Of a DNA stretch of 10,929 nucleotides, positions 1 through 10,929 are shown in pieces (within the stretch, counting starts at the first letter, position 1; each line of letters opens with the position of its first letter). Under the pieces are notes generated by a model. It had not been told where the DNA came from. It made no database searches and saw only the letters and a program-made list of their open reading frames with translations. The translations under genes and the position numbers were made by a program. The stretch is from a virus (taxonomy: Duplodnaviria; Heunggongvirae; Uroviricota; Caudoviricetes): positions 1 to 10,929 of IMG/VR virus record IMGVR_UViG_2698536418_000009; one strand, given 5' to 3'.

Positions 1-272
1 CCGCGATTGACATACATCGGCGTTTCGGTGGTGTCTTCTTCGGAAATTTTCCCGCGGTTAGTCGGGCGAACATATGAGAGTTTGTGTTTTATTTTCACAC
101 GGTTCTCATCAAACGGTTCGATTTCCAGGTTGAGCGAGACCTTACCTTTGGTTTTCGTGTTCATCACACCGGAAGCGACTTCACTGAGAACTGCGCCGAT
201 TTTGGTTTCAAATACGCCGCCGTCCAGCTCCCCGATAAATGCCTGCACATCAGTACTGCGTTCGCTAGCCAT
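1..272 (-). CDS. Hypothetical early-left-operon protein, partial (start ATG at 272-270, runs off the left edge of the window); N-terminus MASERSTDVQAFIGELDGG...
   Basis: Reverse-strand frame open for 90 codons from ATG (plus 270-272) to the window edge. GAGGAG Shine-Dalgarno 7 nt upstream (rev-comp of 282-287). Not in the ORF track because no stop lies inside the window. Confidence 0.5.
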   Translation of the reverse strand, partial: MASERSTDVQAFIGELDGGVFETKIGAVLSEVASGVMNTKTKGKVSLNLEIEPFDENRVKIKHKLSYVRPTNRGKISEEDTTETPMYVNR

Positions 273-299
273 TTTGCTGCTCCTCATCATATCGACCCT

Positions 300-620
300 G
301 CAAGGTCGGTTGGTTTCTCCACAAAACAGAGAAGAACACCTGCGGTGGCAGCCGCCCGGATGGATTGGGTTATGAGCCCGTCGTCCGGTGATGCTCTTCT
401 CTGTTTTGTAAAAAGGACGGTACCAGCCGGAAGCAAGGATACAAGCTGATACCGCCAAGACTACACACAGCATAAAGTTGTGGTGCCGGGTGCCTCCCGG
501 TGCCTGGCGAAGGTTGCACACCAGGCGGGTGGGTATCCACAGAAGGTCGACTGTCAGCCTCAACCTTAACCCGCGTGCGCTGAGTCGCATTCACCACAAC
601 GCTAAGGATTCTCTTTGGTT
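300..620. other. GC-rich structured non-coding stretch with a perfect 15-bp inverted repeat (321-335 / 395-409) enclosing a 59-nt loop; candidate RNA element
   Basis: ACAAAACAGAGAAGA at 321-335 is the exact reverse complement of TCTTCTCTGTTTTGT at 395-409. Further short GC stems downstream (CCTGG...CCAGG, CCGGG...CCCGG). The only ORFs here are Pro/Arg-rich, implausible products. Confidence 0.3.
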
Positions 621-861
621 GAAAATACTTAGCTGTTATGTGCCTGTCTTTTCACCACTTCAGGCTCGGTGGTATCTTGGTGTTTTCATATAGCCAAGAA
701 GGAAATAGTTATGACCAAAGAAGAAAAATTCTTTATTTATTCCAACTATCGGTTAAGACTCGCACTGCATATCAGACTGCTGCCATGACATCAGATAAAA
801 ATTACAGTACGTCAGAAAACCCGATAGACGACATAAGCAAGCTTTACGATAGTTCGAAGCA

Positions 862-1038
862 CTACTCGATAAAAAGTTTGCTGAGGCTGGGCTTGAGTGA
901 TTGTTGAATAATCGACAAAACCCAACTTAAATTTTCGTCAGTGGGCTCGATGCCATGTGCGGTGAGCTCACTTTTCAAAACTCCAAGCAATTCAGAGCTG
1001 ATTTTCAATATATCTGCTTGAGTTCTAACTATTCCCAC
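862..1038 (-). CDS. Hypothetical small protein of the leftward early operon (58 aa from GTG; alternative ATG start at 1068 gives 68 aa)
   Basis: ORF track 862..1068 minus. Strong SD AGGGAGG (rev-comp) about 5 nt upstream of in-frame GTG at 1038-1036; the ATG at 1068 has no SD. Same orientation as neighbouring early-left genes. Confidence 0.4.
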   Translation of the reverse strand: MGIVRTQADILKISSELLGVLKSELTAHGIEPTDENLSWVLSIIQQSLKPSLSKLFIE

Positions 1039-1127
1039 TTTTTCCTCCCTTGGTCTACGCGCGGTCATGTTTTACGCCCAAACGACTTCACAGTTATTGT
1101 TTAAAATCTGGACTTTCATTTTGTTCT

Positions 1128-1331
1128 TTAACCTCCAGATTTCAGCGTATCTAAAGGCGCATTCTCATTTGGTGTGAACCGAATAGTTGTGCTGATATTG
1201 ATTAATGCCCCGACACACAAGACTACGCACTCAGAGCAGATAGCAACTTCATCTTTTCCGCCTTTGGCGATGATTTTTTTTGCCTGCAGCTCGTTTGCGC
1301 CACAAAACGAGCATGTGAAATAACTGTTCAT
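1128..1331 (-). CDS. Stand-alone ClpX-type C4 zinc-ribbon protein (zf-C4_ClpX-like), about 67 aa
   Basis: Product contains CSFCG...(21 aa)...CSECVVLC, matching the Cys spacing and local residues of the ClpX N-terminal zinc-binding domain (E. coli ClpX: [32 protein letters not shown]). Start is uncertain: the track begins at 1349, the internal Met is at 1331, and my hand reverse-complement near 1317-1321 did not reproduce the track frame. Confidence 0.5.
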   Translation of the reverse strand: MNSYFTCSFCGANELQAKKIIAKGGKDEVAICSECVVLCVGALINISTTIRFTPNENAPLDTLKSGG

Positions 1332-1441
1332 TTGTGCTCTCTTACACATAGTATTTAACGAATCATCCGGTCATTCATACGCCACCGGCGGCTACTTCGT
1401 GGGCGTCCTGCCTGTTCGTTACTGCAACATCTTTAAGTTGT

Positions 1442-1474
1442 AATCTAGTTGTTGTTTTGGTTGTTGTCAACAAC
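1442..1474 (-). promoter_or_regulatory. pL-like leftward early promoter with overlapping operator palindrome (OL)
   Basis: On the minus strand: -35 TTGACA (plus 1465-1470), 17-bp spacer, -10 TAGATT (plus 1442-1447). Palindrome GTTGTTG-T-CAACAAC at 1460-1474 overlaps the -35; another GTTGTTG at 1448-1454. Confidence 0.4.
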
Positions 1475-1664
1475 TTTATGTGGTTTTGACGGATGTGAAA
1501 TGAGGGCAAGGGTTATCAAAAAAGAAGGTTGTATGGACGATGCGCTTTTAATTACACAAGGGACACTTTCCTTCCGTGATTGGAAACTCTCAAATCACGG
1601 GAGGAAGATTGAAAAGGCGGGTAATAATGGTAACTAAATTTCTGAAGGAAGGTTTTTTGATGCA

Positions 1665-2351
1665 TTACCAAGTGCGCGATGACCAGAATACTCTACCTAT
1701 AACGTGAATTCTGGAACGCCTATCTTCGAAGGTGAGTATTTCATCTGGATACTCATCTTTATTGAAACTTCTTAGAATCAGACCACCGTCAGGTAAATTG
1801 ATCAATATTTTAACTCTAAGTAATACGCCATCACGTATGGCATAAAGATCCCCATCACGAATAGGAACCGTTTGGGAAACATCAACAGCAACAAAATCTC
1901 CATTGTTAAGTACAGGTAGTAAACTATTGCCCCAAATTTTTACGATCTTTGCATTGGAGACACATACACCAGCTTTTCTTAAATCAATCCTTCTTAGCGG
2001 GAACCAGTCTACAGTTGATTCAACTATTTCAGCCAAACATCCATTACCCGCTGATAACTCGACATCTAGGACTGGAATGTTTGCAAAAATGTCAGGATCT
2101 AATGCTGTACTTTCAGCCTCCTTTACAACAAGGTCTGGGAAAGACGCGTTATCCTCAATTCCCAATTGCAACCACTTTTGAGAAACCCCTAACACTTTAG
2201 CAATCTCTTTAATTTTCCGAGGCTGTTGAGTTTCTCCATTCTCGATTTTCGCTACGGATTGTTGTGAAAGCCCAATTTTTTCAGCTAGTTGCGCCTGACT
2301 CATTCCTGCTTTTTCTCTTTCGCTTTTTAGTCTTTCTGCCAATGTTTTCAC
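1665..2351 (-). CDS. cI: Phage CI-type repressor: N-terminal XRE-family HTH plus C-terminal S24 (LexA-like) autopeptidase domain
   Basis: 228-aa ORF. N-terminus has the HTH_XRE signature (AGMSQAQLAEKIGLSQQSVAKIENGETQQP); the C-terminal half has the size and layout of an S24 peptidase domain, but I did not identify the catalytic Ser/Lys. Transcribed divergently from the cro-like gene. GTG start with GAGGGGGA SD. Confidence 0.88.
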   Translation of the reverse strand: MKTLAERLKSEREKAGMSQAQLAEKIGLSQQSVAKIENGETQQPRKIKEIAKVLGVSQKWLQLGIEDNASFPDLVVKEAESTALDPDIFANIPVLDVELSAGNGCLAEIVESTVDWFPLRRIDLRKAGVCVSNAKIVKIWGNSLLPVLNNGDFVAVDVSQTVPIRDGDLYAIRDGVLLRVKILINLPDGGLILRSFNKDEYPDEILTFEDRRSRIHVIGRVFWSSRTW

Positions 2352-2378
2352 AACATATCCCCCTCGTTTTTATTGAGG

Positions 2379-2470
2379 TTACAACTTTATGTTTTAGCTT
2401 TCCAACATCTAAAAGTTGTGATAAAAGTTGTTGTAGTTGTATAATCGAAGTTATCAACAACTTTACTACT
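2379..2470 (+). promoter_or_regulatory. OR/pR-like region: rightward promoter (-35 TTGTGA 2416-2421, -10 TATAAT 2440-2445) flanked by operator half-sites
   Basis: Consensus -10 TATAAT with an 18-bp spacer to TTGTGA. Half-sites ACAACTTT (2381-2388), AAAGTTGT (2412-2419), GTTGTTG (2427-2433) and CAACAAC (2455-2461), the same motif family as at OL. AGGAG SD precedes the cro-like ATG at 2489. Confidence 0.45.
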
Positions 2471-2488
2471 TACAGATAGGAGAAAGCT

Positions 2489-2737
2489 ATGACACCTGAG
2501 CAATTAGCCTTATCAGAGGCAATCGCTCTGGCTGGTGGTCAATCAGAATTGGCTCGGAAGCTCACAGCCAGCAGTGGTCGTTTAGTAAAGCAACAACATG
2601 TCTGGAACTGGTTGAACAGAGAAAAGCGTCCCCCTGCAAAGCTCTCGATATTTATTGAAATGACCACTGGCGTATCAAAAGAAAAATTACGTCCAGATAT
2701 TTTTCAAAAGATTAAAGACTTATCAGATGGAAAGTAA
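2489..2737 (+). CDS. Cro-like / YdaS-family HTH regulator (82 aa)
   Basis: First gene rightward of the immunity promoter region. Motif AGGQSELARKL ... RPDIF is typical of the small Cro/YdaS-like (DUF1870-type) prophage regulators. AGGAGA SD 4 nt upstream of the ATG. Confidence 0.7.
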   Translation: MTPEQLALSEAIALAGGQSELARKLTASSGRLVKQQHVWNWLNREKRPPAKLSIFIEMTTGVSKEKLRPDIFQKIKDLSDGK

Positions 2738-3197
2738 CCACAGTTTTAAGGAGATAGCCGTGGGTAAGCATCACTGGAAAGTAGAAAAACAGCCTGAGTG
2801 GTACGTGAAAGCTGTCAGAAAAACTATCGCAACGTTGCCGGGTGGTTACGCTGAAGCAGCTGACTGGCTGGATGTAACAGAGAACGCATTATTTAACCGC
2901 CTTCGTGCCGATGGCGATCAGATTTTCCCGCTGGGATGGGCAATGATTTTGCAACGTGCTGGTGGAACTCACTTCATTGCTGACGCTGTGGCGCAGTCTG
3001 CAAATGGCGTCTTTGTGTCTCTTCCTGACGTCGAGGATGTGGACAACGCCGATATAAACCAGCGCCTGCTGGAAGTCATCGAACAGATCGGGAGTTACTC
3101 AAAGCAGATTCGTTCGGCAATCGAAGATGGGGTAGTGGAGCCACACGAGCAGACAGCAATTAATGATGAGTTGTATCTGTCAATTTCGAAGCTCTAG
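2727..3197 (+). CDS. CII-like early regulator (phage CII/CP76- or YdaT-type), 145-156 aa
   Basis: Sits immediately after the cro-like gene; size and position fit CII-like prophage regulators. ATG at 2727 overlaps the cro-like stop; an in-frame GTG at 2760 has a strong AAGGAG SD (2748-2753), so the true start may be 2760. Confidence 0.55.
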   Translation: MESNHSFKEIAVGKHHWKVEKQPEWYVKAVRKTIATLPGGYAEAADWLDVTENALFNRLRADGDQIFPLGWAMILQRAGGTHFIADAVAQSANGVFVSLPDVEDVDNADINQRLLEVIEQIGSYSKQIRSAIEDGVVEPHEQTAINDELYLSISKL

Positions 3198-3492
3198 GAG
3201 CATGCAGCACTGGTCTACAAAATCTTTTGCGCTCCAGAAGAGAGTAACGCCCGCGAGTGTGCAGCTCCGGGCGTCGTGGCGTCGATTGCTTCTGGTTGTG
3301 GAGAAACTAACGCATGAACAGTTTAACAACACACTACCGTCGCTCGCAACTGATTGCGCTTCCTGTACCGGGTGGAAAAGCGAAGGTGGAGTATTGCTAT
3401 GCAGTGAATGTACCAGGTGACAGGGAAATTGTAACCCACAGCTTTGCAGAGTGGGCTGTGGGTGATTTCAACCGGCAGAAGGAGACAGTCCT

Positions 3493-3705
3493 TTGCGACA
3501 AGTTAACCGCTGGTTCAAAGATCACTACGGAGTGCCCGTCAGAGTCATTCGTTGGGAGCCGGAAACACAACGGGTTATCTACCTCCGTGAAGGCTATGAA
3601 CATGAATGCTTCAGTCCGCTCGAACAGTTTCGTCGTAAATTCAGGGAAATAGAGGTCGGTCATGAGCCTGTTAATGACATCCCAGCCCATTGTGATAAAT
3701 CGTGA
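3493..3705 (+). CDS. Small conserved protein (70 aa, TTG start) directly upstream of and overlapping the O-like gene
   Basis: AAGGAG SD (3479-3484) 8 nt upstream of TTG 3493. All five nucleotide differences between the two copies in this ORF (3573, 3588, 3600, 3606, 3615) are synonymous third-position changes in this frame and would be nonsynonymous in the overlapping frame of ORF 3314..3652. Confidence 0.5.
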
Positions 3706-4021
3706 TCTTGCATGCCGTATTGGTCTGAATGAGGCAATTGTGTTGCAGCAGCTTCATTACTGGCTGAATGAAACGAATTCAGGCACTGAGCATGGCGGAA
3801 TTCGCTGGGTTTATAACACGACAGAACAGTGGCTGGAGCAGTTTCCGTTCTGGTCAGAGTCCACTCTGAAACGCACATTTGCAAGCCTGAAATCACTTGG
3901 GGTTTTGCGTCGCGAGCAACTCAATAAATCGAAGCGTGACATGACCAACTTCTACACGATCAACTATGAAAGTGAGCTTTTAGAAGAGGTCAAAATGCAC
4001 TTCTCCATCGGGTCAAAGTGA
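3662..4021 (+). CDS. O-like replication initiator, N-terminal DNA-binding domain (119 aa), separated from the C-terminal domain by an in-iteron TGA stop and frame change
   Basis: GAGGT SD before ATG 3662. Product ends ...HFSIGSK inside the iteron array. The next ORF (4026..4631) is in a different frame and matches the C-terminal two-thirds of the intact O-like protein at 6552..7493. Confidence 0.55.
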   Translation: MSLLMTSQPIVINRDLACRIGLNEAIVLQQLHYWLNETNSGTEHGGIRWVYNTTEQWLEQFPFWSESTLKRTFASLKSLGVLRREQLNKSKRDMTNFYTINYESELLEEVKMHFSIGSK

Positions 4022-4138
4022 CCTGATGGATGGGCGCAAAATGATACGATCCATTGGTTCAAAACGACACGCTGTCATCGGGTCAAAATGGCCCAATGAT
4101 CTTACAGAGAATACAACAGAGATTACTACAGAGAATAA
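3986..4138 (+). repeat. Candidate ori iterons of copy 1: four GGTCAAA-core repeats (3986-4000, 4008-4023, 4054-4070, 4078-4094) plus three tandem 12-bp A-rich repeats (4103-4138)
   Basis: Direct repeats GAGGTCAAAATGCAC / TCGGGTCAAAGTGACC / TTGGTTCAAAACGACAC / TCGGGTCAAAATGGCCC, then TACAGAGAATAC / AACAGAGATTAC / TACAGAGAATAA. They sit at the N-domain/C-domain junction of the O-like gene, the same place lambda ori sits in gene O. Confidence 0.5.
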
Positions 4139-4631
4139 AACCTCTTCTCGTCCGGACGCTTCGCAACCGGACACGCAAACGGCTGAACAGGAGTTTTTAA
4201 CTCGCCATCCTGATGCGGTTGTATTCAGCCCTAAAAAGCGCCAGTGGGGAACGCAGGATGATTTGACCTGCGCACAGTGGCTCTGGAAAAAAATCATCGC
4301 CCTGTACGAGCAGGCCGCCGAATGTGACGGCGAGGTGGTTCGTCCCAAAGAACCGAACTGGACAGCATGGGCAAACGAAATTCGCCTGATGTGTGTGCAG
4401 GATGGTCGTACTCACAAACAAATCTGCGAGATGTACAGCCGCGTCAGCCGCGATCCGTTCTGGTGCCGTAACGTGCTCAGCCCGTCGAAGTTGCGGGAAA
4501 AATGGGATGAGCTTTCCCTGCGCTTATCGCCGTCCGTCAGCACGCACACAGAAAAACGTGAAGACCCGTACTTCAAAGCCAGTTACGACAACGTGGACTA
4601 CAGCCAGATCCCGGCAGGATTCAGGGGGTGA
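4026..4631 (+). CDS. O-like replication initiator, C-terminal domain ORF (201 aa); possibly the 3' part of a disrupted O gene
   Basis: Residues from TSSRPDASQPDTQTAEQ onward match the C-terminal region of ORF 6552..7493 apart from a few substitutions. Weak SD before ATG 4026. Confidence 0.55.
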   Translation: MDGRKMIRSIGSKRHAVIGSKWPNDLTENTTEITTENKTSSRPDASQPDTQTAEQEFLTRHPDAVVFSPKKRQWGTQDDLTCAQWLWKKIIALYEQAAECDGEVVRPKEPNWTAWANEIRLMCVQDGRTHKQICEMYSRVSRDPFWCRNVLSPSKLREKWDELSLRLSPSVSTHTEKREDPYFKASYDNVDYSQIPAGFRG

Positions 4632-4633
4632 TC

Positions 4634-4726
4634 ATGAGTCTGTTAAATGACGTTCAGAAATTCATTGAAGCCCATCCGGGCTGTACTTCCGGAGACATTG
4701 CGGATGCTTTTTACGTGGGGGCTTAA
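4634..4726 (+). pseudogene. 30-codon remnant of the PerC-like regulator gene (in-frame 396-bp internal deletion relative to 7496..7984)
   Basis: Encodes MSLLNDVQKFIEAHPGCTSGDIADAF + YVGA, i.e. the first 26 and last 4 codons of the 162-aa copy-2 protein. Deletion junction near 4708-4712 in a short T-run. The stop/start overlap TAATG with the methyltransferase gene is retained. Confidence 0.5.
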
Positions 4727-5379
4727 TGAGTAATAAATATTGCCAGGCGCTGGTAGAACTGCGGAACAAACCAGCCCATGAACTGAAGGAAGTGGGCGAT
4801 CAGTGGCGCACGCCGGACAACATTTTCTGGGGAATTAACACCTTGTTTGGTCCGTTTGTTCTGGATCTGTTCACTGACGGTGATAACGCCAAATGTGCCG
4901 CGTATTACACGGCGGAAGACAACGCGCTGGCGCATGACTGGTCAGAACGTCTTGCGGAGCTTAAAGGTGCTGCCTTTGGCAATCCCCCGTACAGCCGCGC
5001 CAGTCAGCATGAGGGGCAATACATCACCGGCATGCGTTACATCATGAAGCATGCCAGTGCCATGCGTGATAAAGGCGGGCGCTATGTTTTCCTGATCAAA
5101 GCTGCCACCGGCGAAGTGTGGTGGCCGGAAGGTGCAGATCATATTGCTTTTATTCGCGGGCGTATTGGTTTTGAACTGCCTGCCTGGTTTATCCCGAAAG
5201 ACGAAAAGCAGGTGCCAACAGGTGCTTTCTTCGCTGGTGCTATTGCTGTTTTCGACAAGACCTGGAAGGGACCGGCAATCAGCTACATCGGGCGCGATGA
5301 ACTTGAGGCATGTGGTGAGGCATTTCTGGCGCAGGTTCGCCAGCAGGCGGAAAAACTGGTCAGGGAGATGGTGGCATGA
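4726..5379 (+). CDS. Phage DNA N6-adenine methyltransferase (orphan, Dam-like), copy 1
   Basis: 217 aa with the catalytic motif GNPPYS (the (D/N/S)PP(Y/F) motif IV of N6-adenine MTases). Start overlaps the upstream stop (TAATG); stop overlaps the rusA start (ATGA). Confidence 0.8.
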   Translation: MSNKYCQALVELRNKPAHELKEVGDQWRTPDNIFWGINTLFGPFVLDLFTDGDNAKCAAYYTAEDNALAHDWSERLAELKGAAFGNPPYSRASQHEGQYITGMRYIMKHASAMRDKGGRYVFLIKAATGEVWWPEGADHIAFIRGRIGFELPAWFIPKDEKQVPTGAFFAGAIAVFDKTWKGPAISYIGRDELEACGEAFLAQVRQQAEKLVREMVA

Positions 5380-5765
5380 AGCTAATACTGCCTTTTCCGC
5401 CCAGCGTGAACACGTACTGGCGACACCCCAACAAAGGGGCATTTGCTGGTAAGAGCCTGATAAGCGAGGCGGGGCGAAAATTTCAGAGCGCGGCGTGTGC
5501 CGCCATCATTGAGCAGTTACGTCGTCTGCCGAAACCAACGTCGGCACCTGCTTCAGTGGAGATCGTGTTGTTTCCTCCGGATAACAGGATCCGCGATCTG
5601 GACAACTATAACAAGGCGCTGTTTGACGCCCTGACCCACGCGGGTGTGTGGGAAGACGACAGTCAGGTGAAAAGAATGCTGGTGGAGTGGGGACCGGTTA
5701 TCCCGAAAGGGAAGGTCGAGATCACTATCAGTAAGTACGAGAAAACGGCGGGTGCAGCCGCCTGA
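5376..5765 (+). CDS. rusA: RusA-family Holliday junction resolvase, copy 1
   Basis: 129 aa; MKLILPFPPSVNTYW... and RDLDNYNKALFDALTHAGVWEDDSQV follow the RusA layout. Typical nin-region position. Confidence 0.85.
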   Translation: MKLILPFPPSVNTYWRHPNKGAFAGKSLISEAGRKFQSAACAAIIEQLRRLPKPTSAPASVEIVLFPPDNRIRDLDNYNKALFDALTHAGVWEDDSQVKRMLVEWGPVIPKGKVEITISKYEKTAGAAA

Positions 5766-5784
5766 TCAAGAGGAGAAACGAAGT

Positions 5785-6207
5785 ATGAATAATCTGATGG
5801 TCATTGATGGTATTGAAGTTCGTCGTGATGTTTATGGGCGTTACAGCCTGAACGATCTACATCACGCAGCAGTAGCATCTGGTGCAAATGCCAGAACCAA
5901 GGAGCCAGGAAAGTTTCTTTCCAGCCAACAAACTGTTGAACTTGTTCATGAATTGACCAACACCCAGAATTTGGGTGTTGACCCGGTGAGTGTGATTCAT
6001 GGGGGAAATGAACGGGGAACGTATGTCTGCAAGGAACTGGTGTATGCCTATGCAATGTGGATCAGCCCGTCATTCCATCTGAAGGTGATCCGTACTTTCG
6101 ATATGGTAACCAGCGCACCGGAAAAATTATCCGGACAGGCTGCTGACAAGATGCAGGCTGGCGTGATCCTGCTGGACTTTATGCGATGTGGAGAAACTAA
6201 CGCATGA
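5785..6207 (+). CDS. KilA-N domain protein, copy 1, C-terminally truncated at the duplication junction (140 aa)
   Basis: AGGAG SD 9 nt before ATG 5785. Matches the first 133 residues of ORF 9366..10175, then diverges at 6186 into 7 novel codons (CGETNA plus stop) supplied by the start of unit 2. Confidence 0.65.
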
Positions 6208-6382
6208 ACAGTTTAACAACACACTACCGTCGCTCGCAACTGATTGCGCTTCCTGTACCGGGTGGAAAAGCGAAGGTGGAGTATTGCTATGCAGTAAATG
6301 TACCAGGTGACAGGGAAATTGTAACCCACAGCTTTGCAGAGTGGGCTGTGGGTGATTTCAACCGGCAGAAGGAGACAGTCCT

Positions 6383-6562
6383 TTGCGACAAGTTAACCGC
6401 TGGTTCAAAGATCACTACGGAGTGCCCGTCAGAGTCATTCGTTGGGAGCCGGAAACACAACGTGTTATCTACCTCCGCGAAGGCTATGAGCATGAGTGCT
6501 TCAGCCCGCTCGAACAGTTTCGTCGTAAATTCAGGGAAATAGAGGTCGGTCATGAGCACTAA
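6383..6562 (+). CDS. Small conserved protein, copy 2 (59 aa, TTG start), overlapping the start of the intact O-like gene
   Basis: Same SD and TTG as at 3493; coding sequence differs from copy 1 only by synonymous changes up to the repeat boundary. Below the ORF-track length cutoff. Confidence 0.45.
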
Positions 6563-7493
6563 ATTAACCGGCTATGTATGGGATGGTTGCGCTGCATCAG
6601 GCATGAAATTATCCAGCGTGGCAATTATGGCCCGCCTGGCTGATTTCAGTAATGACGAAGGTGTGTGCTGGCCATCAATTGAAACCATTGCCCGCCAGAT
6701 TGGCGCGGGGATGAGTACCGTCAGAACGGCTATCGCACGGCTGGAAGCAGAAGGCTGGTTAACGCGTAGGGCGCGTCGCCAGGGTAACCGCAATGCGTCG
6801 AATGTTTATCAGCTTAACGTTGCGAAGCTTCAGGCAGCGGCATTTTCTCAACTGTCAGATTCTGACCCGTCAAAATCTGACGCATCAAAATCTGACCCGT
6901 CAAAATTTGATGCGTCGAAATCTGGCAAAAAAGCGGGTTTTCACCCGTCAGAATCTGGTGGGGATCCGTCAGTAAAATCAAAACATGATCCGTCAGATAA
7001 AAAAACTTCTCGTCCGGACGCTTCGCAACCGGACACGCAGACGGCTGAACAGGATTTTTTAACTCGCCATCCTGATGCGGTTGTATTCAGCCCTAAAAAG
7101 CGCCAGTGGGGGACGCAGGATGATTTGACCTGCGCACAGTGGCTCTGGAAAAAAATCATCGCCCTGTACGAGCATGCCGCCGAATGTGACGGCGAGGTGG
7201 TTCGTCCCAAAGAACCGAACTGGACAGCCTGGGCAAACGAAATTCGCCTGATGTGTGTGCAGGATGGTCGTACTCATAAACAAATCTGCGAGATGTACAG
7301 CCGCGTCAGTCGCGATCCGTTCTGGTGCCGTAACGTGCTCAGCCCGTCGAAGCTGCGGGAAAAATGGGATGAGCTTTCCCTGCGCTTATCGCCGTCCGTC
7401 AGCACGTACACCGAAAAACGCGAAGACCCGTACTTCAAAGCCAGTTACGACAACGTGGACTACAGCCAGATCCCGGCAGGATTCAGGGGGTGA
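6552..7493 (+). CDS. O-like replication initiator (replisome organizer), intact, 313 aa: N-terminal winged-helix DNA-binding domain, iteron-encoded linker, conserved C-terminal domain
   Basis: GAGGT SD 5 nt before ATG 6552. The N-terminal 90 aa look like a helix-turn-helix replication-initiator fold. The linker is encoded by tandem 15-bp repeats (SDPSK/SDASK). C-terminal domain shared with ORF 4026..4631. Confidence 0.75.
   Translation: MSTKLTGYVWDGCAASGMKLSSVAIMARLADFSNDEGVCWPSIETIARQIGAGMSTVRTAIARLEAEGWLTRRARRQGNRNASNVYQLNVAKLQAAAFSQLSDSDPSKSDASKSDPSKFDASKSGKKAGFHPSESGGDPSVKSKHDPSDKKTSRPDASQPDTQTAEQDFLTRHPDAVVFSPKKRQWGTQDDLTCAQWLWKKIIALYEHAAECDGEVVRPKEPNWTAWANEIRLMCVQDGRTHKQICEMYSRVSRDPFWCRNVLSPSKLREKWDELSLRLSPSVSTYTEKREDPYFKASYDNVDYSQIPAGFRG
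6861..7006 (+). repeat. Candidate ori iterons of copy 2: four tandem 15-bp repeats (consensus about CCGTCAAAATCTGAC, 6866-6925), an A-rich tract, and three degenerate CCGTCAG-containing repeats
   Basis: CCGTCAAAATCTGAC / GCATCAAAATCTGAC / CCGTCAAAATTTGAT / GCGTCGAAATCTGGC, then GGCAAAAAAGCGGG, then CCCGTCAGAATCTGG, TCCGTCAGTAAAATC, TCCGTCAGATAAAAAAAC. Located inside the O-like gene linker. Confidence 0.55.
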
Positions 7494-7495
7494 TC

Positions 7496-7984
7496 ATGAG
7501 TCTTTTGAATGACGTTCAGAAATTCATTGAAGCCCATCCGGGGTGTACTTCCGGAGACATTGCGGATGCTTTTGCAGGTTACTCACGACAGCGCGTTCTG
7601 CAGTCAGCAAGCAAGTTACGTCAGAGTGGGCGTGTGGCTCACCGTTGTGAAGGGGATACACGCAGACATTTCCCGCGGCTGACTGAGATACCGCAGGAGC
7701 CGGAACCGCAACCAGTTCGTGAATCCAGACCTGTGCGCAATTTCTATGTCGGCACTAACGATCCCCGGGTGATTTTGTGCCTGACCCGCCAGGCGGAAGA
7801 ACTGGAGTCCAGGGGCTTATACCGTCGTGCTGCAACGGTGTGGATGGCGGCATTCCGTGAAAGCCACTCCCAGCAAGAGCGAAACAATTTTCTGGCGCGT
7901 CGTGAGCGGTGTTTACGGAAAAGCAGCAAGCGCGCTGCATCGGGTGAAGAGTGGTATCTGTCAGGGAATTACGTGGGGGCTTAA
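7496..7984 (+). CDS. PerC-like transcriptional regulator with N-terminal HTH-like region (162 aa)
   Basis: C-terminal motif AEELESRGLYRRAATVWMAAF resembles the PerC/Pch family signature as I remember it. AGGGGG SD before ATG 7496. Stop overlaps the MTase start (TAATG). Confidence 0.5.
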   Translation: MSLLNDVQKFIEAHPGCTSGDIADAFAGYSRQRVLQSASKLRQSGRVAHRCEGDTRRHFPRLTEIPQEPEPQPVRESRPVRNFYVGTNDPRVILCLTRQAEELESRGLYRRAATVWMAAFRESHSQQERNNFLARRERCLRKSSKRAASGEEWYLSGNYVGA

Positions 7985-8637
7985 TGAGTAATAAATATTG
8001 CCAGGCGCTGGTGGAGCTGCGGAACAAACCAGCCCATGAACTGAAGGAAGTGGGCGATCAGTGGCGCACGCCGGACAACATTTTCTGGGGAATTAACACC
8101 CTGTTTGGCCCGTTTGTTCTGGATCTGTTTACTGATGGTGATAACGCCAAATGCGCCGCGTATTACACTGCGGAAGACAACGCGCTGGCGCATGACTGGT
8201 CAGAACGTCTTGCGGAGCTTAAAGGTGCTGCCTTTGGTAATCCCCCGTACAGCCGCGCCAGTCAGCATGAGGGGCAATACATCACCGGCATGCGTTACAT
8301 CATGAAGCATGCCAGTGCCATGCGTGATAAAGGCGGGCGCTATGTTTTCCTGATCAAAGCTGCCACCAGCGAAGTTTGGTGGCCGGAAGATGCAGACCAT
8401 ATTGCTTTTATTCGCGGGCGTATTGGTTTTGAACTGCCAGCCTGGTTTATCCCGAAGGACGAGAAGCAGGTGCCGACAGGCGCTTTCTTCGCTGGTGCTA
8501 TTGCTGTTTTCGACAAGACCCGGAAGGGACCGGCAATCAGCTACATCGGGCGCGATGAACTTGAGGCATGTGGTGAGGCCTTTCTGGCGCAGGTTCGCCA
8601 GCAGGCGGAAAAACTGGTCAGGGAGATGGCGGCATGA
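7984..8637 (+). CDS. Phage DNA N6-adenine methyltransferase (orphan, Dam-like), copy 2
   Basis: 217 aa with GNPPYS motif. Differs from copy 1 by about 20 nt substitutions counted by eye, giving 4 amino-acid changes. The track start at 7951 is an upstream GTG; the ATG at 7984 matches copy 1. Confidence 0.8.
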   Translation: MSNKYCQALVELRNKPAHELKEVGDQWRTPDNIFWGINTLFGPFVLDLFTDGDNAKCAAYYTAEDNALAHDWSERLAELKGAAFGNPPYSRASQHEGQYITGMRYIMKHASAMRDKGGRYVFLIKAATSEVWWPEDADHIAFIRGRIGFELPAWFIPKDEKQVPTGAFFAGAIAVFDKTRKGPAISYIGRDELEACGEAFLAQVRQQAEKLVREMAA

Positions 8638-8960
8638 CGACGTTAACTCAATGCCAGCAGCAGGTGCTGGATATGCTGATTTCTTACCAGCAAGAACGTG
8701 GCTTTCCGCCAACCAATCAGGAGGTGGCAACCATGCTGGGATACCGTTCGGTGAATGCAGCGGTGGAGCATCTTCGCGCACTGGAGAAAAAAGGCGTCAT
8801 CACGATAAAGCGTGGCGTGGCCCGGGGGATAACTCTTCATACCGCGGTGAAGGACGACGACAGCGAGGCGGTCGGGATTATCCGCGCACTGCTTGCCGGT
8901 GAGGAAAACGCCAGGCTGCGTGCAGCCCACTGGTTACATGAGAGGGGCCTGAAAGTATGA
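8634..8960 (+). CDS. LexA N-terminal DNA-binding-domain protein lacking the S24 peptidase domain (108 aa)
   Basis: TQCQQQVLDMLISYQQERGFPPTNQEVATMLGYRSVNAAVEHLRALEKKGVITIKRGVARGITL aligns with the E. coli LexA winged-helix DNA-binding domain (...[62 protein letters not shown]). No peptidase domain follows. ATGA overlaps at both ends. Confidence 0.7.
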   Translation: MTTLTQCQQQVLDMLISYQQERGFPPTNQEVATMLGYRSVNAAVEHLRALEKKGVITIKRGVARGITLHTAVKDDDSEAVGIIRALLAGEENARLRAAHWLHERGLKV

Positions 8961-9346
8961 AGCTGATCTTGCCTTTCCCGCCCAGCGTGAACACGTACTG
9001 GCGACACCCCAACAAAGGGGCGTTTGCTGGTAAGAGTCTGATAAGCGCAGCGGGGCGCAAATTCCAGAGCGCGGCGTGCGCAGCAATAGTTGAGCAGTTA
9101 CGTCGTCTGCCGAAACCAACGTCGGCACCTGCTTCAGTGGAGATCGTGTTGTTTCCTCCGGATAACCGGATCCGCGATCTGGACAACTATAACAAGGCGC
9201 TGTTTGACGCCCTGACCCATGCGGGTGTGTGGGAAGACGACAGTCAGGTGAAAAGAATGCTGGTGGAGTGGGGACCGGTTATCCCGAAAGGGAAGGTCGA
9301 GATCACTATCAGTAAGTACGAGAAAACGGCGGGTGCAGCCGCCTGA
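8957..9346 (+). CDS. rusA: RusA-family Holliday junction resolvase, copy 2
   Basis: 129 aa, 2 amino-acid differences from copy 1. Start overlaps the stop of the upstream LexA-DBD gene. Confidence 0.85.
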   Translation: MKLILPFPPSVNTYWRHPNKGAFAGKSLISAAGRKFQSAACAAIVEQLRRLPKPTSAPASVEIVLFPPDNRIRDLDNYNKALFDALTHAGVWEDDSQVKRMLVEWGPVIPKGKVEITISKYEKTAGAAA

Positions 9347-9365
9347 TCAAGAGGAGAAACGAAGT

Positions 9366-10175
9366 ATGAATAATCTGATGGTCATTGATGGTATTGAAGT
9401 TCGTCGTGATGTTTATGGGCGTTACAGCCTGAACGATCTACATCACGCAGCAGTAGCATCTGGTGCAAATGCCAGAACCAAGGAGCCAGGAAAGTTTCTT
9501 TCCAGCCAACAAACTGTTGAACTTGTTCATGAATTGACCAACACCCAGAATTTGGGTGTTGACCCGGTGAGTGTGATTCATGGGGGAAATGAACGGGGAA
9601 CGTATGTCTGCAAGGAACTGGTGTATGCCTATGCAATGTGGATCAGCCCGTCATTCCATCTGAAGGTGATCCGTACTTTCGACATGGTAACCAGCACACC
9701 GGAAAAATTATCCGGACAGGCTGCTGACAAGATGCAGGCTGGTGTGATTCTGCTGGACTTTATGCGTCGGGAATTAAACCTGTCTAACTCATCTGTGCTT
9801 GGTGCCTGTCAGAAACTCCAGGAGGCTGTTGGCTTACCGAATCTGGCACCGCGCTATGCCATTGATGCTCCTGCTGATGCACACGATGGCTCAAGTCGCC
9901 CGACACTGTCACTGAGTGCACTGCTGAAACAGTATGGTATCCGCCTGACGGCTAATCAGGCATATCACCAGATGGCAAAGCTGGGGATCGTTGAACAACG
10001 TGAACGATACAGCCGCACTGCGATTAACAACATCAAAAAATTCTGGTCGCTGACGGCGAAAGGCTGCATGTTCGGCAAGAACATCACCAGTCCCGCAAAT
10101 CCGCGCGAGACGCAGCCGCATTTCTTCGAATCCCGATTCCCTGAGCTGTTAAAGCTGCTCGATACCGTTCATTGA
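9366..10175 (+). CDS. KilA-N domain protein with C-terminal antirepressor-like extension (269 aa), full-length copy
   Basis: AGGAG SD 9 nt before ATG 9366. The N-terminal 110 aa have the size and position of a KilA-N domain (recalled, not aligned). The C-terminal 135 aa are unique to this copy. Confidence 0.7.
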   Translation: MNNLMVIDGIEVRRDVYGRYSLNDLHHAAVASGANARTKEPGKFLSSQQTVELVHELTNTQNLGVDPVSVIHGGNERGTYVCKELVYAYAMWISPSFHLKVIRTFDMVTSTPEKLSGQAADKMQAGVILLDFMRRELNLSNSSVLGACQKLQEAVGLPNLAPRYAIDAPADAHDGSSRPTLSLSALLKQYGIRLTANQAYHQMAKLGIVEQRERYSRTAINNIKKFWSLTAKGCMFGKNITSPANPRETQPHFFESRFPELLKLLDTVH

Positions 10176-10182
10176 GGTGACC

Positions 10183-10929
10183 GTGAGAGCACTACTGACC
10201 CCTGAAATTGCCCCGCGTATGGGGATCGTATTGTTCAGGCCAGGTTCAGAGCTGATGCCCCTGTTTATGCAGGGGCGTGTCCTGCTGGAGCCTGAGCCGG
10301 AGCGTTATTCATCTTTCGCCAGTGGTGCCGTTCCGGCGGCATCACAACCGCTGGCGGATGATCCTGCCGTTCGGGCCGTGTTCCGCAATGAGGCAGTGAT
10401 CCGTCGTGCTGGTGGCGTGGAATGTCTTGAAAGCTGGTTACTTCGTGAAAAAGGCTGCCAGTGGCCTCATTCCGACTGGCACAGCGAGAACATGACCACA
10501 ATGCGACACGCTCCGGGTGCAATCCGTCTGTGCTGGCACTGCGATAACCAGCTGCGCGATCAGTTCACGGAACGGCTGGAATCAATGGCAACGGATAACT
10601 GTGCCCGCTGGGTGTTGTCTGTTGTGCGTCGGGATCTCGGTTTTGATGACAGTCACGTTGTGACAATGCCGGAACTGTGCTGGTGGCTGATTCGTAATGA
10701 TCTGGCGGATGCCTTACCGGAAAGTGCAGCCCGTAAGGCACTGAGATTACCGAAGCCTGTTGTGCCGTCTGTTACCCGGGAAAGTGACCTTGTGCCTTCG
10801 GTTCCTGCCACCAGCATCATCCAGGATAAGGCGAAAAAGGTGCTGGCGCTGAAAGTGGATCCGGAGTCGCCGGAGTCTTTTATGTTACGCCCAAAACGTC
10901 GCCGCTGGGTTAATGAAAAGTACACGCGC
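10183..10929 (+). CDS. Conserved prophage protein with a Cys/His cluster, partial (runs off the right edge of the window); start uncertain (GTG 10183 or ATG 10219)
   Basis: Plus-strand frame open for 249 codons to the window end with E. coli-like codon usage. Contains C-x-W-x-H ... H ... C-W-H-C spacing that could bind metal. The minus-strand track ORFs 10265..10522 and 10653..10925 are shorter and judged to be shadows. Confidence 0.5.
   Translation, partial: MRALLTPEIAPRMGIVLFRPGSELMPLFMQGRVLLEPEPERYSSFASGAVPAASQPLADDPAVRAVFRNEAVIRRAGGVECLESWLLREKGCQWPHSDWHSENMTTMRHAPGAIRLCWHCDNQLRDQFTERLESMATDNCARWVLSVVRRDLGFDDSHVVTMPELCWWLIRNDLADALPESAARKALRLPKPVVPSVTRESDLVPSVPATSIIQDKAKKVLALKVDPESPESFMLRPKRRRWVNEKYTR

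Follow-up and report, generated by a model that had tools for sequence, protein, structure and literature searches.

Why would a lambdoid prophage carry, close to its repressor gene, what looks like the substrate-docking domain of the host protease subunit ClpX, freed from the rest of the enzyme? The question is raised by a small gene, here termed ZF, in a 10,929-nucleotide (nt) stretch of viral DNA (IMG/VR record IMGVR_UViG_2698536418_000009, positions 1 to 10,929; hereafter the window). The window belongs to an Escherichia coli/Shigella lambdoid prophage of the SfII/SfV/e14/CPS-53-like kind, and its DNA matches Shigella phage SfII and thousands of E. coli chromosomes. We find that ZF is, with near certainty, one ClpX-type zinc-binding domain (ZBD), that is, a treble-clef C4 zinc ribbon with a hydrophobic C-terminal helix, followed by a short disordered tail. 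What the protein does is a matter for more cautious wording: we tentatively propose that it is an early-expressed mimic of the ClpX N-domain, acting in trans to shift the substrate choice of ClpXP.

The gene and the parts of its product lie on the minus strand:

1128-1331, minus strand, stop codon included: ZF, encoding a 67-residue stand-alone ClpX-type ZBD protein, MNSYFTCSFCGANELQAKKIIAKGGKDEVAICSECVVLCVGALINISTTIRFTPNENAPLDTLKSGG (open reading frame (ORF) list, Pfam, RefSeq, PHROG and the ratio of non-synonymous to synonymous changes, dN/dS)
1332-1349, minus strand: possible six-codon N-terminal extension, MCKRAQ, from an upstream in-frame ATG at 1349
1194-1319, minus strand: ZBD proper, residues 5-46, comprising a β-hairpin, a strand and a C-terminal helix (Pfam, alignment to ClpX, AlphaFold2 (AF2) and Foldseek)
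1311-1313, 1302-1304, 1236-1238 and 1227-1229, minus strand: codons of the predicted zinc ligands C7, C10, C32 and C35, respectively
1128-1193, minus strand: C-terminal tail, residues 47-67, predicted to be disordered (pLDDT < 50 for residues 52-67)

The maximal ORF spans 1128-1349 and would encode 73 residues from ATG 1349 or 67 residues from ATG 1331. We prefer the shorter form, because all ZF relatives start at the methionine equivalent to ATG 1331 (M-N/S-x-Y) and a purine-rich AAGAGAG precedes this codon by 5 nt. The segment 1332-1349 is probably a 5′ untranslated region that holds this Shine–Dalgarno-like sequence (1337-1343). PGAP annotates the 67-residue form in some genomes and the 73-residue form in others. 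Since dN/dS over the ZBD is 0.12-0.17 (a comparison with diverged relatives, in which synonymous sites are saturated), ZF is a real gene under purifying selection and no chance ORF.

The Pfam family zf-C4_ClpX (PF06689) matched ZF at 41.3 bits against a gathering score of 27 (E = 1.4e-10; envelope 12-46 in 73-residue numbering), which bears out the first-pass annotation of this ORF as a stand-alone ClpX-type ZBD. Six of seven diverged relatives also pass the gathering score, P0020 being borderline at 26.2 bits. Across the family, the four cysteines of the pattern C7-x2-C10 ... C32-x2-C35 (67-residue numbering) are invariant, and ZF shares with E. coli ClpX both the C4 signature CSFCG ... IC-x-EC-V-x-LC and a fifth cysteine (C39, equivalent to ClpX C43). 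The helix after the last cysteine of the signature is strongly hydrophobic (VVLCVGALI), as a ZBD dimer interface would predict. By contrast, the loop before the second cysteine pair is three residues longer in ZF (AKGGKDEVAIC) than in ClpX (AGPSVYIC).

Searches against known structures point the same way. The best PDB sequence matches are the E. coli ClpX ZBD entries 2ds5 (E = 2.4e-4) and 1ovx (E = 4e-4), and E < 0.02 was reached by ClpX chains only; ribosomal zinc-ribbon proteins showed weak, sub-threshold similarity (E = 0.4-0.9). The AF2 monomer model, of moderate confidence (mean pLDDT 66; 72-83 over residues 1-40), predicts a zinc-ribbon fold with a helix at residues 33-51. Its top Foldseek matches are the ClpX ZBD crystal structures 2ds5, 2ds6 and 2ds8 (TM-target 0.78-0.83, root mean square deviation 1.4-1.7 Å, probability 1.00), with E-values of ~0.01 because the domain is short. 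Residues 1-46 are strongly conserved in the family. The C-terminal tails range from ~10 to 75 residues and are unalignable, and a Pfam scan of the long tails found no domain.

Unlike ClpX, ZF is phage-encoded, putatively repressor-controlled and devoid of the AAA+ ring, the last of these already noted at first pass. The NCBIfam ClpX equivalogs TIGR00382 (cut-off 370.75 bits) and NF003745 (cut-off 359 bits) score only 22.7 and 25.7 bits, respectively. A tblastn search of the window with full-length ClpX returned a single match, which aligns ClpX residues 15-44 with positions 1215-1313 at 48% identity over 33 residues. A truncated or pseudogenized ClpX is ruled out by the lack of any AAA+ remnant in the window, by the purifying selection and by the clean boundaries of the ZF cassette relative to SfII (below). 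Zinc binding, dimerization and any contact of ZF with ClpX, its adaptors or its substrates are inferred.

Upstream of ZF lie the elements that would control it:

1349-1425, minus strand: leader RNA, structured and conserved, that forms the 5′ end of the leftward transcript, with a core helix at ~1357-1418 and the invariant sequence GGCAGGACGCCCACGAAGUAGC (alignment, covariation)
1425-1478, no strand assigned: operator-like repeats overlapping the promoter, CAACATCTTTAAGTTG (1425-1440) and GTTGTCAACAACTTTA (1463-1478) (repeat families D1, D4 and D7)
1442-1470, minus strand: pL-type promoter with -35 TTGACA (1470-1465), a 17-nt spacer and -10 TAGATT (1447-1442) (sigma-70 promoter scan, 10/12 matches)
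1568-1606, minus strand: strong hairpin of 17 bp, located past the cI stop codon and before the promoter (inverted repeat I3; fold z = -2.25)
1665-2351, minus strand: cI-type repressor of 228 residues, upstream neighbour of ZF (HTH_3 and Peptidase_S24; Pfam)

The putative promoter was assigned purely by its match to the consensus. The repeats that overlap it recur in the cI–cro intergenic region at 2403-2418, 2450-2465 and 2381-2392; the shared pairs are CAACATCT..AAGTTG at 1425 and 2403, GTT(G/A)TCAACAACTTTA at 1463 and 2450, and ACAACTTTATGT at 1470 and 2381. This layout matches the pattern that would be expected of oL and oR operators. We surveyed the neighbourhood in 80 IMG/VR loci, 75 of which have an intact ZF. 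In 72 of these 75, ZF is preceded on the same strand by an S24 repressor gene, usually 170-340 nt away, and the diverged relatives P0020, P0021 and P0023 adjoin an S24 repressor, directly downstream and on the same strand. In L005, L007 and L010, a promoter-like site occupies the same relative position within the repressor–ZF gap. At the three loci of these diverged relatives, the promoter-like site in the gap is flanked by repeats common to their own cI–cro regions, with sequences that differ from those of the window. Judged by sequence, the arrangement supports ZF as the first gene of a repressor-controlled leftward early operon, the place that the first-pass annotation had given it.

The hairpin after cI may be the end of the repressor transcript. 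Although strong, it has no adjacent U-tract, and a terminator scan of the cI–pL gap found no canonical intrinsic terminator; we therefore rejected an intrinsic terminator at this position, and some read-through from the repressor transcript could occur. The same gap contains a 62-residue ORF on the plus strand (1449-1637), which has no family match, overlaps the promoter and operator region and was taken as non-coding.

The leader RNA, an element of ~62-77 nt between the promoter and the ZF start, is nearly identical among loci that differ in promoter and ZF coding sequence and is conserved far beyond either. In the window, L005 and L007, its start lies ~16-18 nt beyond the -10 hexamer. RNAalifold analysis of 14 copies gave an enclosing helix with an inner hairpin and compensatory double changes in 10 of 14 pairs, and the covariance-model match reached 94 bits. 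The element is present in 53 phage records at one copy per genome, from Escherichia, Salmonella, Shigella, Pantoea, Pectobacterium, Yersinia, Klebsiella, Citrobacter, Aeromonas and Providencia (including T5-like Providencia phages). Copies lie at L005 1207-1282, L007 3912-3985, L013 2994-3070, L014 2497-2573, L016 1494-1570, L018 1500-1578, L019 1489-1566 and L021 1489-1565. In the temperate phages checked that have a repressor annotated beside the leader, it follows the repressor gene by ~110-170 nt; in mEp237 and a Klebsiella phage, the gene neighbouring the leader was not identified as a repressor.

An Rfam search matched the leader to no family at gathering or permissive thresholds, and a literature string search for its core gave no match. 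HK022 putL sits at the same position but aligns poorly, covariance model R1 finds nothing in HK022 24000-31000, and the covariation supports one enclosing helix with an inner hairpin, unlike the two adjacent stems of putL/putR; we rejected identity with putL. The leader may act in cis, by modifying RNA polymerase or by stabilizing the transcript. It is independent of ZF: many phages have the leader but no ZF, and P0023-type ZF loci lack the leader.

Comparison with phage SfII delimits ZF as a single-gene indel or cassette, because SfII is nearly identical to the window at 780 to ~1119 and in the leader RNA but lacks ~1120-1356, the ZF gene. Two reading frames follow outside the cassette:

1072-1119, minus strand: 15-codon mini-ORF, MKVQILNNNCEVVWA, next in the leftward transcript
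862-1068, minus strand: ORF68, after the mini-ORF (phrog_15476, E = 8.8e-49)

The same first ~8-15 codons of the mini-ORF head a 91-residue protein in other genomes (compare L004 4745-5020); the mini-ORF region marks a mosaic recombination joint at the gene start.

The ZF allele of the window is found beside repressors of at least 5 clusters (<70% identity), a number that rises to 9 for the family, and the gene next downstream of ZF falls into 10 clusters. Other phages with the same leader element have an unrelated first gene: Kil in mEp237, a helix-turn-helix-like protein in mEp460 and assorted small ORFs elsewhere. Given this varied slot content, the SfII indel, the many repressor clusters and the varied downstream genes, ZF is an accessory, moron-like and probably early gene that occupies a variable slot next to the promoter, with a function independent of immunity type.

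The protein already has a name. An identical 67-residue protein at a 100%-identical locus is listed in RefSeq as "ClpX C4-type zinc finger protein" (WP_024237502.1), WP_250559297.1 is a further RefSeq entry for this gene, most of the gene is found in ~98 complete E. coli genomes, and ZF is a member of phrog_5259 (E = 1.5e-29), for which PHROG lists the function as unknown. Only 3-4 of 50,697 sequenced phage records encode ZF. An exhaustive profile search gave a tight family of ~15 representatives at 50% identity (E < 1e-10), confined to prophages of Enterobacterales and located behind a cI/pL region, and beyond it several hundred small or tandem-repeat ZBD proteins. ZF is thereby one of the stand-alone and tandem zf-C4_ClpX proteins (PHROGs 5259, 20296 and 12435), within which its own subfamily is small. 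The tandem proteins include P0016, P0024 with four ZBDs in 226 residues, and one protein of 2505 residues with 37 matched stretches. A literature search found no functional study of a phage-encoded stand-alone ClpX zinc finger. ZF is new but already annotated as such a protein; what we add is its cassette, slot, promoter and leader RNA context, and not a function.

What, then, might a free ClpX-type domain do? The first-pass annotation took the ClpX N-domain to be the docking site for substrates and adaptors, and published work agrees. A hydrophobic patch around F16 and I46 of the ZBD binds λ O, SspB, RssB and trigger factor, and ClpX without the ZBD degrades no λ O (PMC7804408); the ZBD is also where RssB docks, competing with SspB (PMC7226468). 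In the ZF family, the F16 equivalent (the F of CSFCG) is invariant, and the I46 equivalent is in most cases a small or hydrophobic residue (A, V, T, I or L; occasionally K).

Under the N-domain mimic that we propose, loss of the repressor would lead to early and abundant production of ZF. The protein would probably dimerize, like the ClpX N-domain, and present the same kind of peptide-binding hydrophobic patch. Acting in trans, it would either soak up N-domain-dependent substrates and adaptors (λ-O-type initiators, SspB and RssB) or pair with ClpX N-domains. The substrate choice of ClpXP would thereby shift in favour of the phage, for example by stabilization of its own λ-O-like initiator, and N-domain-independent degradation would be left untouched. 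Such a decoy, or modulator of ClpXP, is plausible and consistent with published ZBD biology; it is the most parsimonious explanation, if still less likely than not. Isolated ClpX ZBD supplied in trans reportedly inhibits the degradation of λ O and MuA in vitro, as Wojtyra and colleagues (2003) and Thibault and colleagues (2006) are said to have found.

Control of host proteases by phages has precedent: λ cIII, from the pL operon, inhibits FtsH, T4 PinA and T7 gp4.5 do the same to Lon, λ RexB shields O from ClpXP, and SPO1 Gp53 acts on ClpCP. The logic proposed for ZF, whereby a small protein of an early or immunity region changes host proteolysis so that phage proteins are spared, resembles theirs. 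None of these modulators, however, is related to ZF in sequence or fold, and none copies a domain of the protease itself. The promoter-proximal slot is also used for other host-directed genes in related phages, of which Kil in mEp237 is one. Because the same ZF allele occurs with many repressor clusters and varied downstream genes, a host-directed or generic target is favoured over an immunity-tied partner.

The candidate beneficiary within the window is the replication initiator:

6552-7493, plus strand: replication initiator with a λ-O-like C-terminal half (BLASTP against λ O: E = 3e-26, 31% identity over 216 residues)

This protein could profit if ZF blunted ZBD-dependent degradation by ClpXP. 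A wider version of the proposal is possible but doubtful. In it, ZF is a natural N-domain mimic that, early in infection or induction, would spare λ-O-type initiators, RpoS and SspB-delivered proteins without affecting N-domain-independent degradation. ZF would then have no known precedent among phage factors in copying the substrate-docking domain of a protease so as to reprogram ClpXP selectivity.

Several observations weigh against an N-domain mimic. The N-terminal domain in this initiator is HTH_36, unlike that of λ O, and the N-terminal degron of λ O is not evidently conserved in it. ClpX N-domain dimers are reportedly very stable, so that exchange of subunits with a phage ZBD is less likely than simple competition. 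ZF is dispensable, being absent from SfII and from many E. coli prophages with the same repressor. Copies frameshifted by a 1-nt deletion, all unannotated, occur in 5 of the 80 viral loci (L067-L071) and among chromosomal E. coli copies (matches H35 and H36). The ZF family also has invariant surface residues of its own (E14, A17-K18-K19, A22-K23-G24 within AKGG, S33, V40 and N45) that differ from ClpX; together with the loop insertion of three residues, they suggest that its binding specificity may have diverged. Finally, zf-C4_ClpX is an accessory domain of cyanobacterial sigma factors as well, and this occurrence, with the hundreds of small and tandem ZBD proteins, marks the fold as a general interaction module and gives no proof of a connection to ClpX.

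These last points lead to the alternative that survives best. The ZBD fold could serve in ZF as a generic small dimerization or peptide-binding module whose target, a host or phage protein in transcription, replication, division or defence, is unrelated to ClpXP, the likeness to ClpX reflecting common ancestry only. We consider this a serious rival, though rather unlikely. Beyond the sigma factors and the family-specific residues, it gains from the length distribution of related proteins: all but 3 of the 150 best family-profile matches are shorter than ClpX (~415 residues), most have 50-300 residues, and many contain 2-4 tandem ZBDs. The assortment of unrelated small genes in the pL-proximal slot of other phages fits it too. 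A generic module would not, however, readily account for the retention of the ClpX-typical signature and of 48% identity to E. coli ClpX over 33 residues, nor for an invariant equivalent of F16 in the docking patch. Moreover, the genes downstream of ZF are so varied that no conserved neighbour suggests an alternative partner.

A second alternative keeps ClpX as the partner but changes the outcome. ZF could be an adaptor or anti-adaptor that docks to ClpX, through an N-domain heterodimer or on the AAA+ ring, and either delivers a specific protein (repressor fragments, or a host protein of defence or division) or blocks an adaptor such as RssB. In its favour, ZF lies next to an S24 repressor and pL, the S24-family proteins LexA and UmuD are handled by ClpXP through N-domain contacts, and Thabet and colleagues are said to have reported in 2022 that completing prophage induction in Staphylococcus aureus depends on ClpX for clearance of the cleaved CI fragments. 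The long-tailed relatives P0008, P0010, P0012 and P0021 share a C-terminal motif that could be a docking peptide, of the form hydrophobic-x-hydrophobic-x-F-x-x-A/S-P (IDITFEHSP, IDISFPDAP, LSVKFDYAP and ITVKFGDAP). Yet the ZF of the window lacks this motif, its tail being short and unconserved, and the adjacency to cI is explained simply by the pL position. With one ZF allele accompanying many repressor alleles, recognition of one specific repressor is unlikely. We judge an adaptor role improbable overall.

Position suggests a third alternative, in which ZF is a nucleic-acid-binding zinc-ribbon regulator of transcription, antitermination or translation of the early operon, in place of λ N. ZF is the first gene after pL, where N (or Nun) is found, the ORF list and Pfam give no N homologue in the window, and the region K18-K26 is basic. 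The weak similarity to ribosomal zinc-ribbon proteins would agree with such a role, but those matches are not significant, and the ZBD of ClpX is a protein-binding and not a nucleic-acid-binding domain. The close relatives SfII and BS15R-A keep the operon without ZF, which excludes an essential antiterminator, and the conserved leader RNA occurs both in phages that have ZF and in phages that lack it. This alternative we regard as very unlikely.

Equally slight is the chance that ZF is an exclusion or lysogenic-conversion gene expressed in the lysogen, like HK022 nun, which would block superinfecting phages that need the ClpX N-domain, such as Mu. The two loci share a layout (repressor gene, pL, structured leader RNA and then a small accessory gene as first ORF), with nun in the equivalent slot after pL/putL; King and colleagues are said to have reported in 2000 that HK022 nun is expressed constitutively. 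Read-through past the hairpin after cI, which is no canonical terminator, could supply such expression, and the moron-like slot suits a conversion gene. ZF itself is unrelated to Nun, however, and its leader is not alignable with putL. The ~25 nt between the leader RNA and the start codon leave no room for a private promoter, and the sole consensus promoter is overlapped by the operator-like repeats. No PADLOC defence model matched ZF, ORF68 or two long relatives, by which a known anti-phage defence component was rejected as well. An anti-repressor partner specific to the neighbouring repressor was rejected as the main reading on the pairing of one ZF allele with at least 5 cI clusters, and of the family with 9.

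To the right of the repressor gene lie two further genes of the immunity region:

2489-2737, plus strand: YdaS-type Cro (Pfam)
2727-3197, plus strand: CII (CP76)-like protein (Pfam)

Beyond them, a replication and nin-like region occurs twice in tandem (3297-6185 and 6187-9766), with four blocks at 97-98% identity. The second copy is complete. The first has a different or split initiator (3662-4021 and 4026-4631), lacks the PerC-like gene and the gene for a LexA DNA-binding domain, and stops at a KilA-N gene that is truncated. In the E. coli genomes that match best, the counterpart of this 10.9-kb window extends over no more than ~7.8 kb. The tandem duplication has the look of a recombination event involving two allelic modules, or of an artefact of assembly.

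At 8634-8960 on the plus strand, a 108-residue protein consists of the LexA DNA-binding domain alone (PF01726, E = 2.6e-19), without the S24 cleavage domain, and may be an uncleavable LexA mimic. It is a second free-standing copy of a host-regulator domain in the same phage as ZF. On the minus strand, the gene at 287-597, between yfdP and ORF68, is split into overlapping ORFs (287-436 and 370-597), and in several E. coli genomes PGAP marks it as frameshifted; either decay to a conserved pseudogene or programmed frameshifting may explain this.

Should the decoy idea prove wrong, ZF would still be a clean entry point to a large uncharacterized class of stand-alone and tandem ClpX-type zinc fingers. 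If it is right, ZF would be a compact natural tool that switches off only adaptor-dependent and N-domain-dependent proteolysis by ClpXP, and a new example of how phages subvert a host machine by borrowing one of its domains. It would also help to explain how lambdoid phages without RexB protect their short-lived replication proteins.

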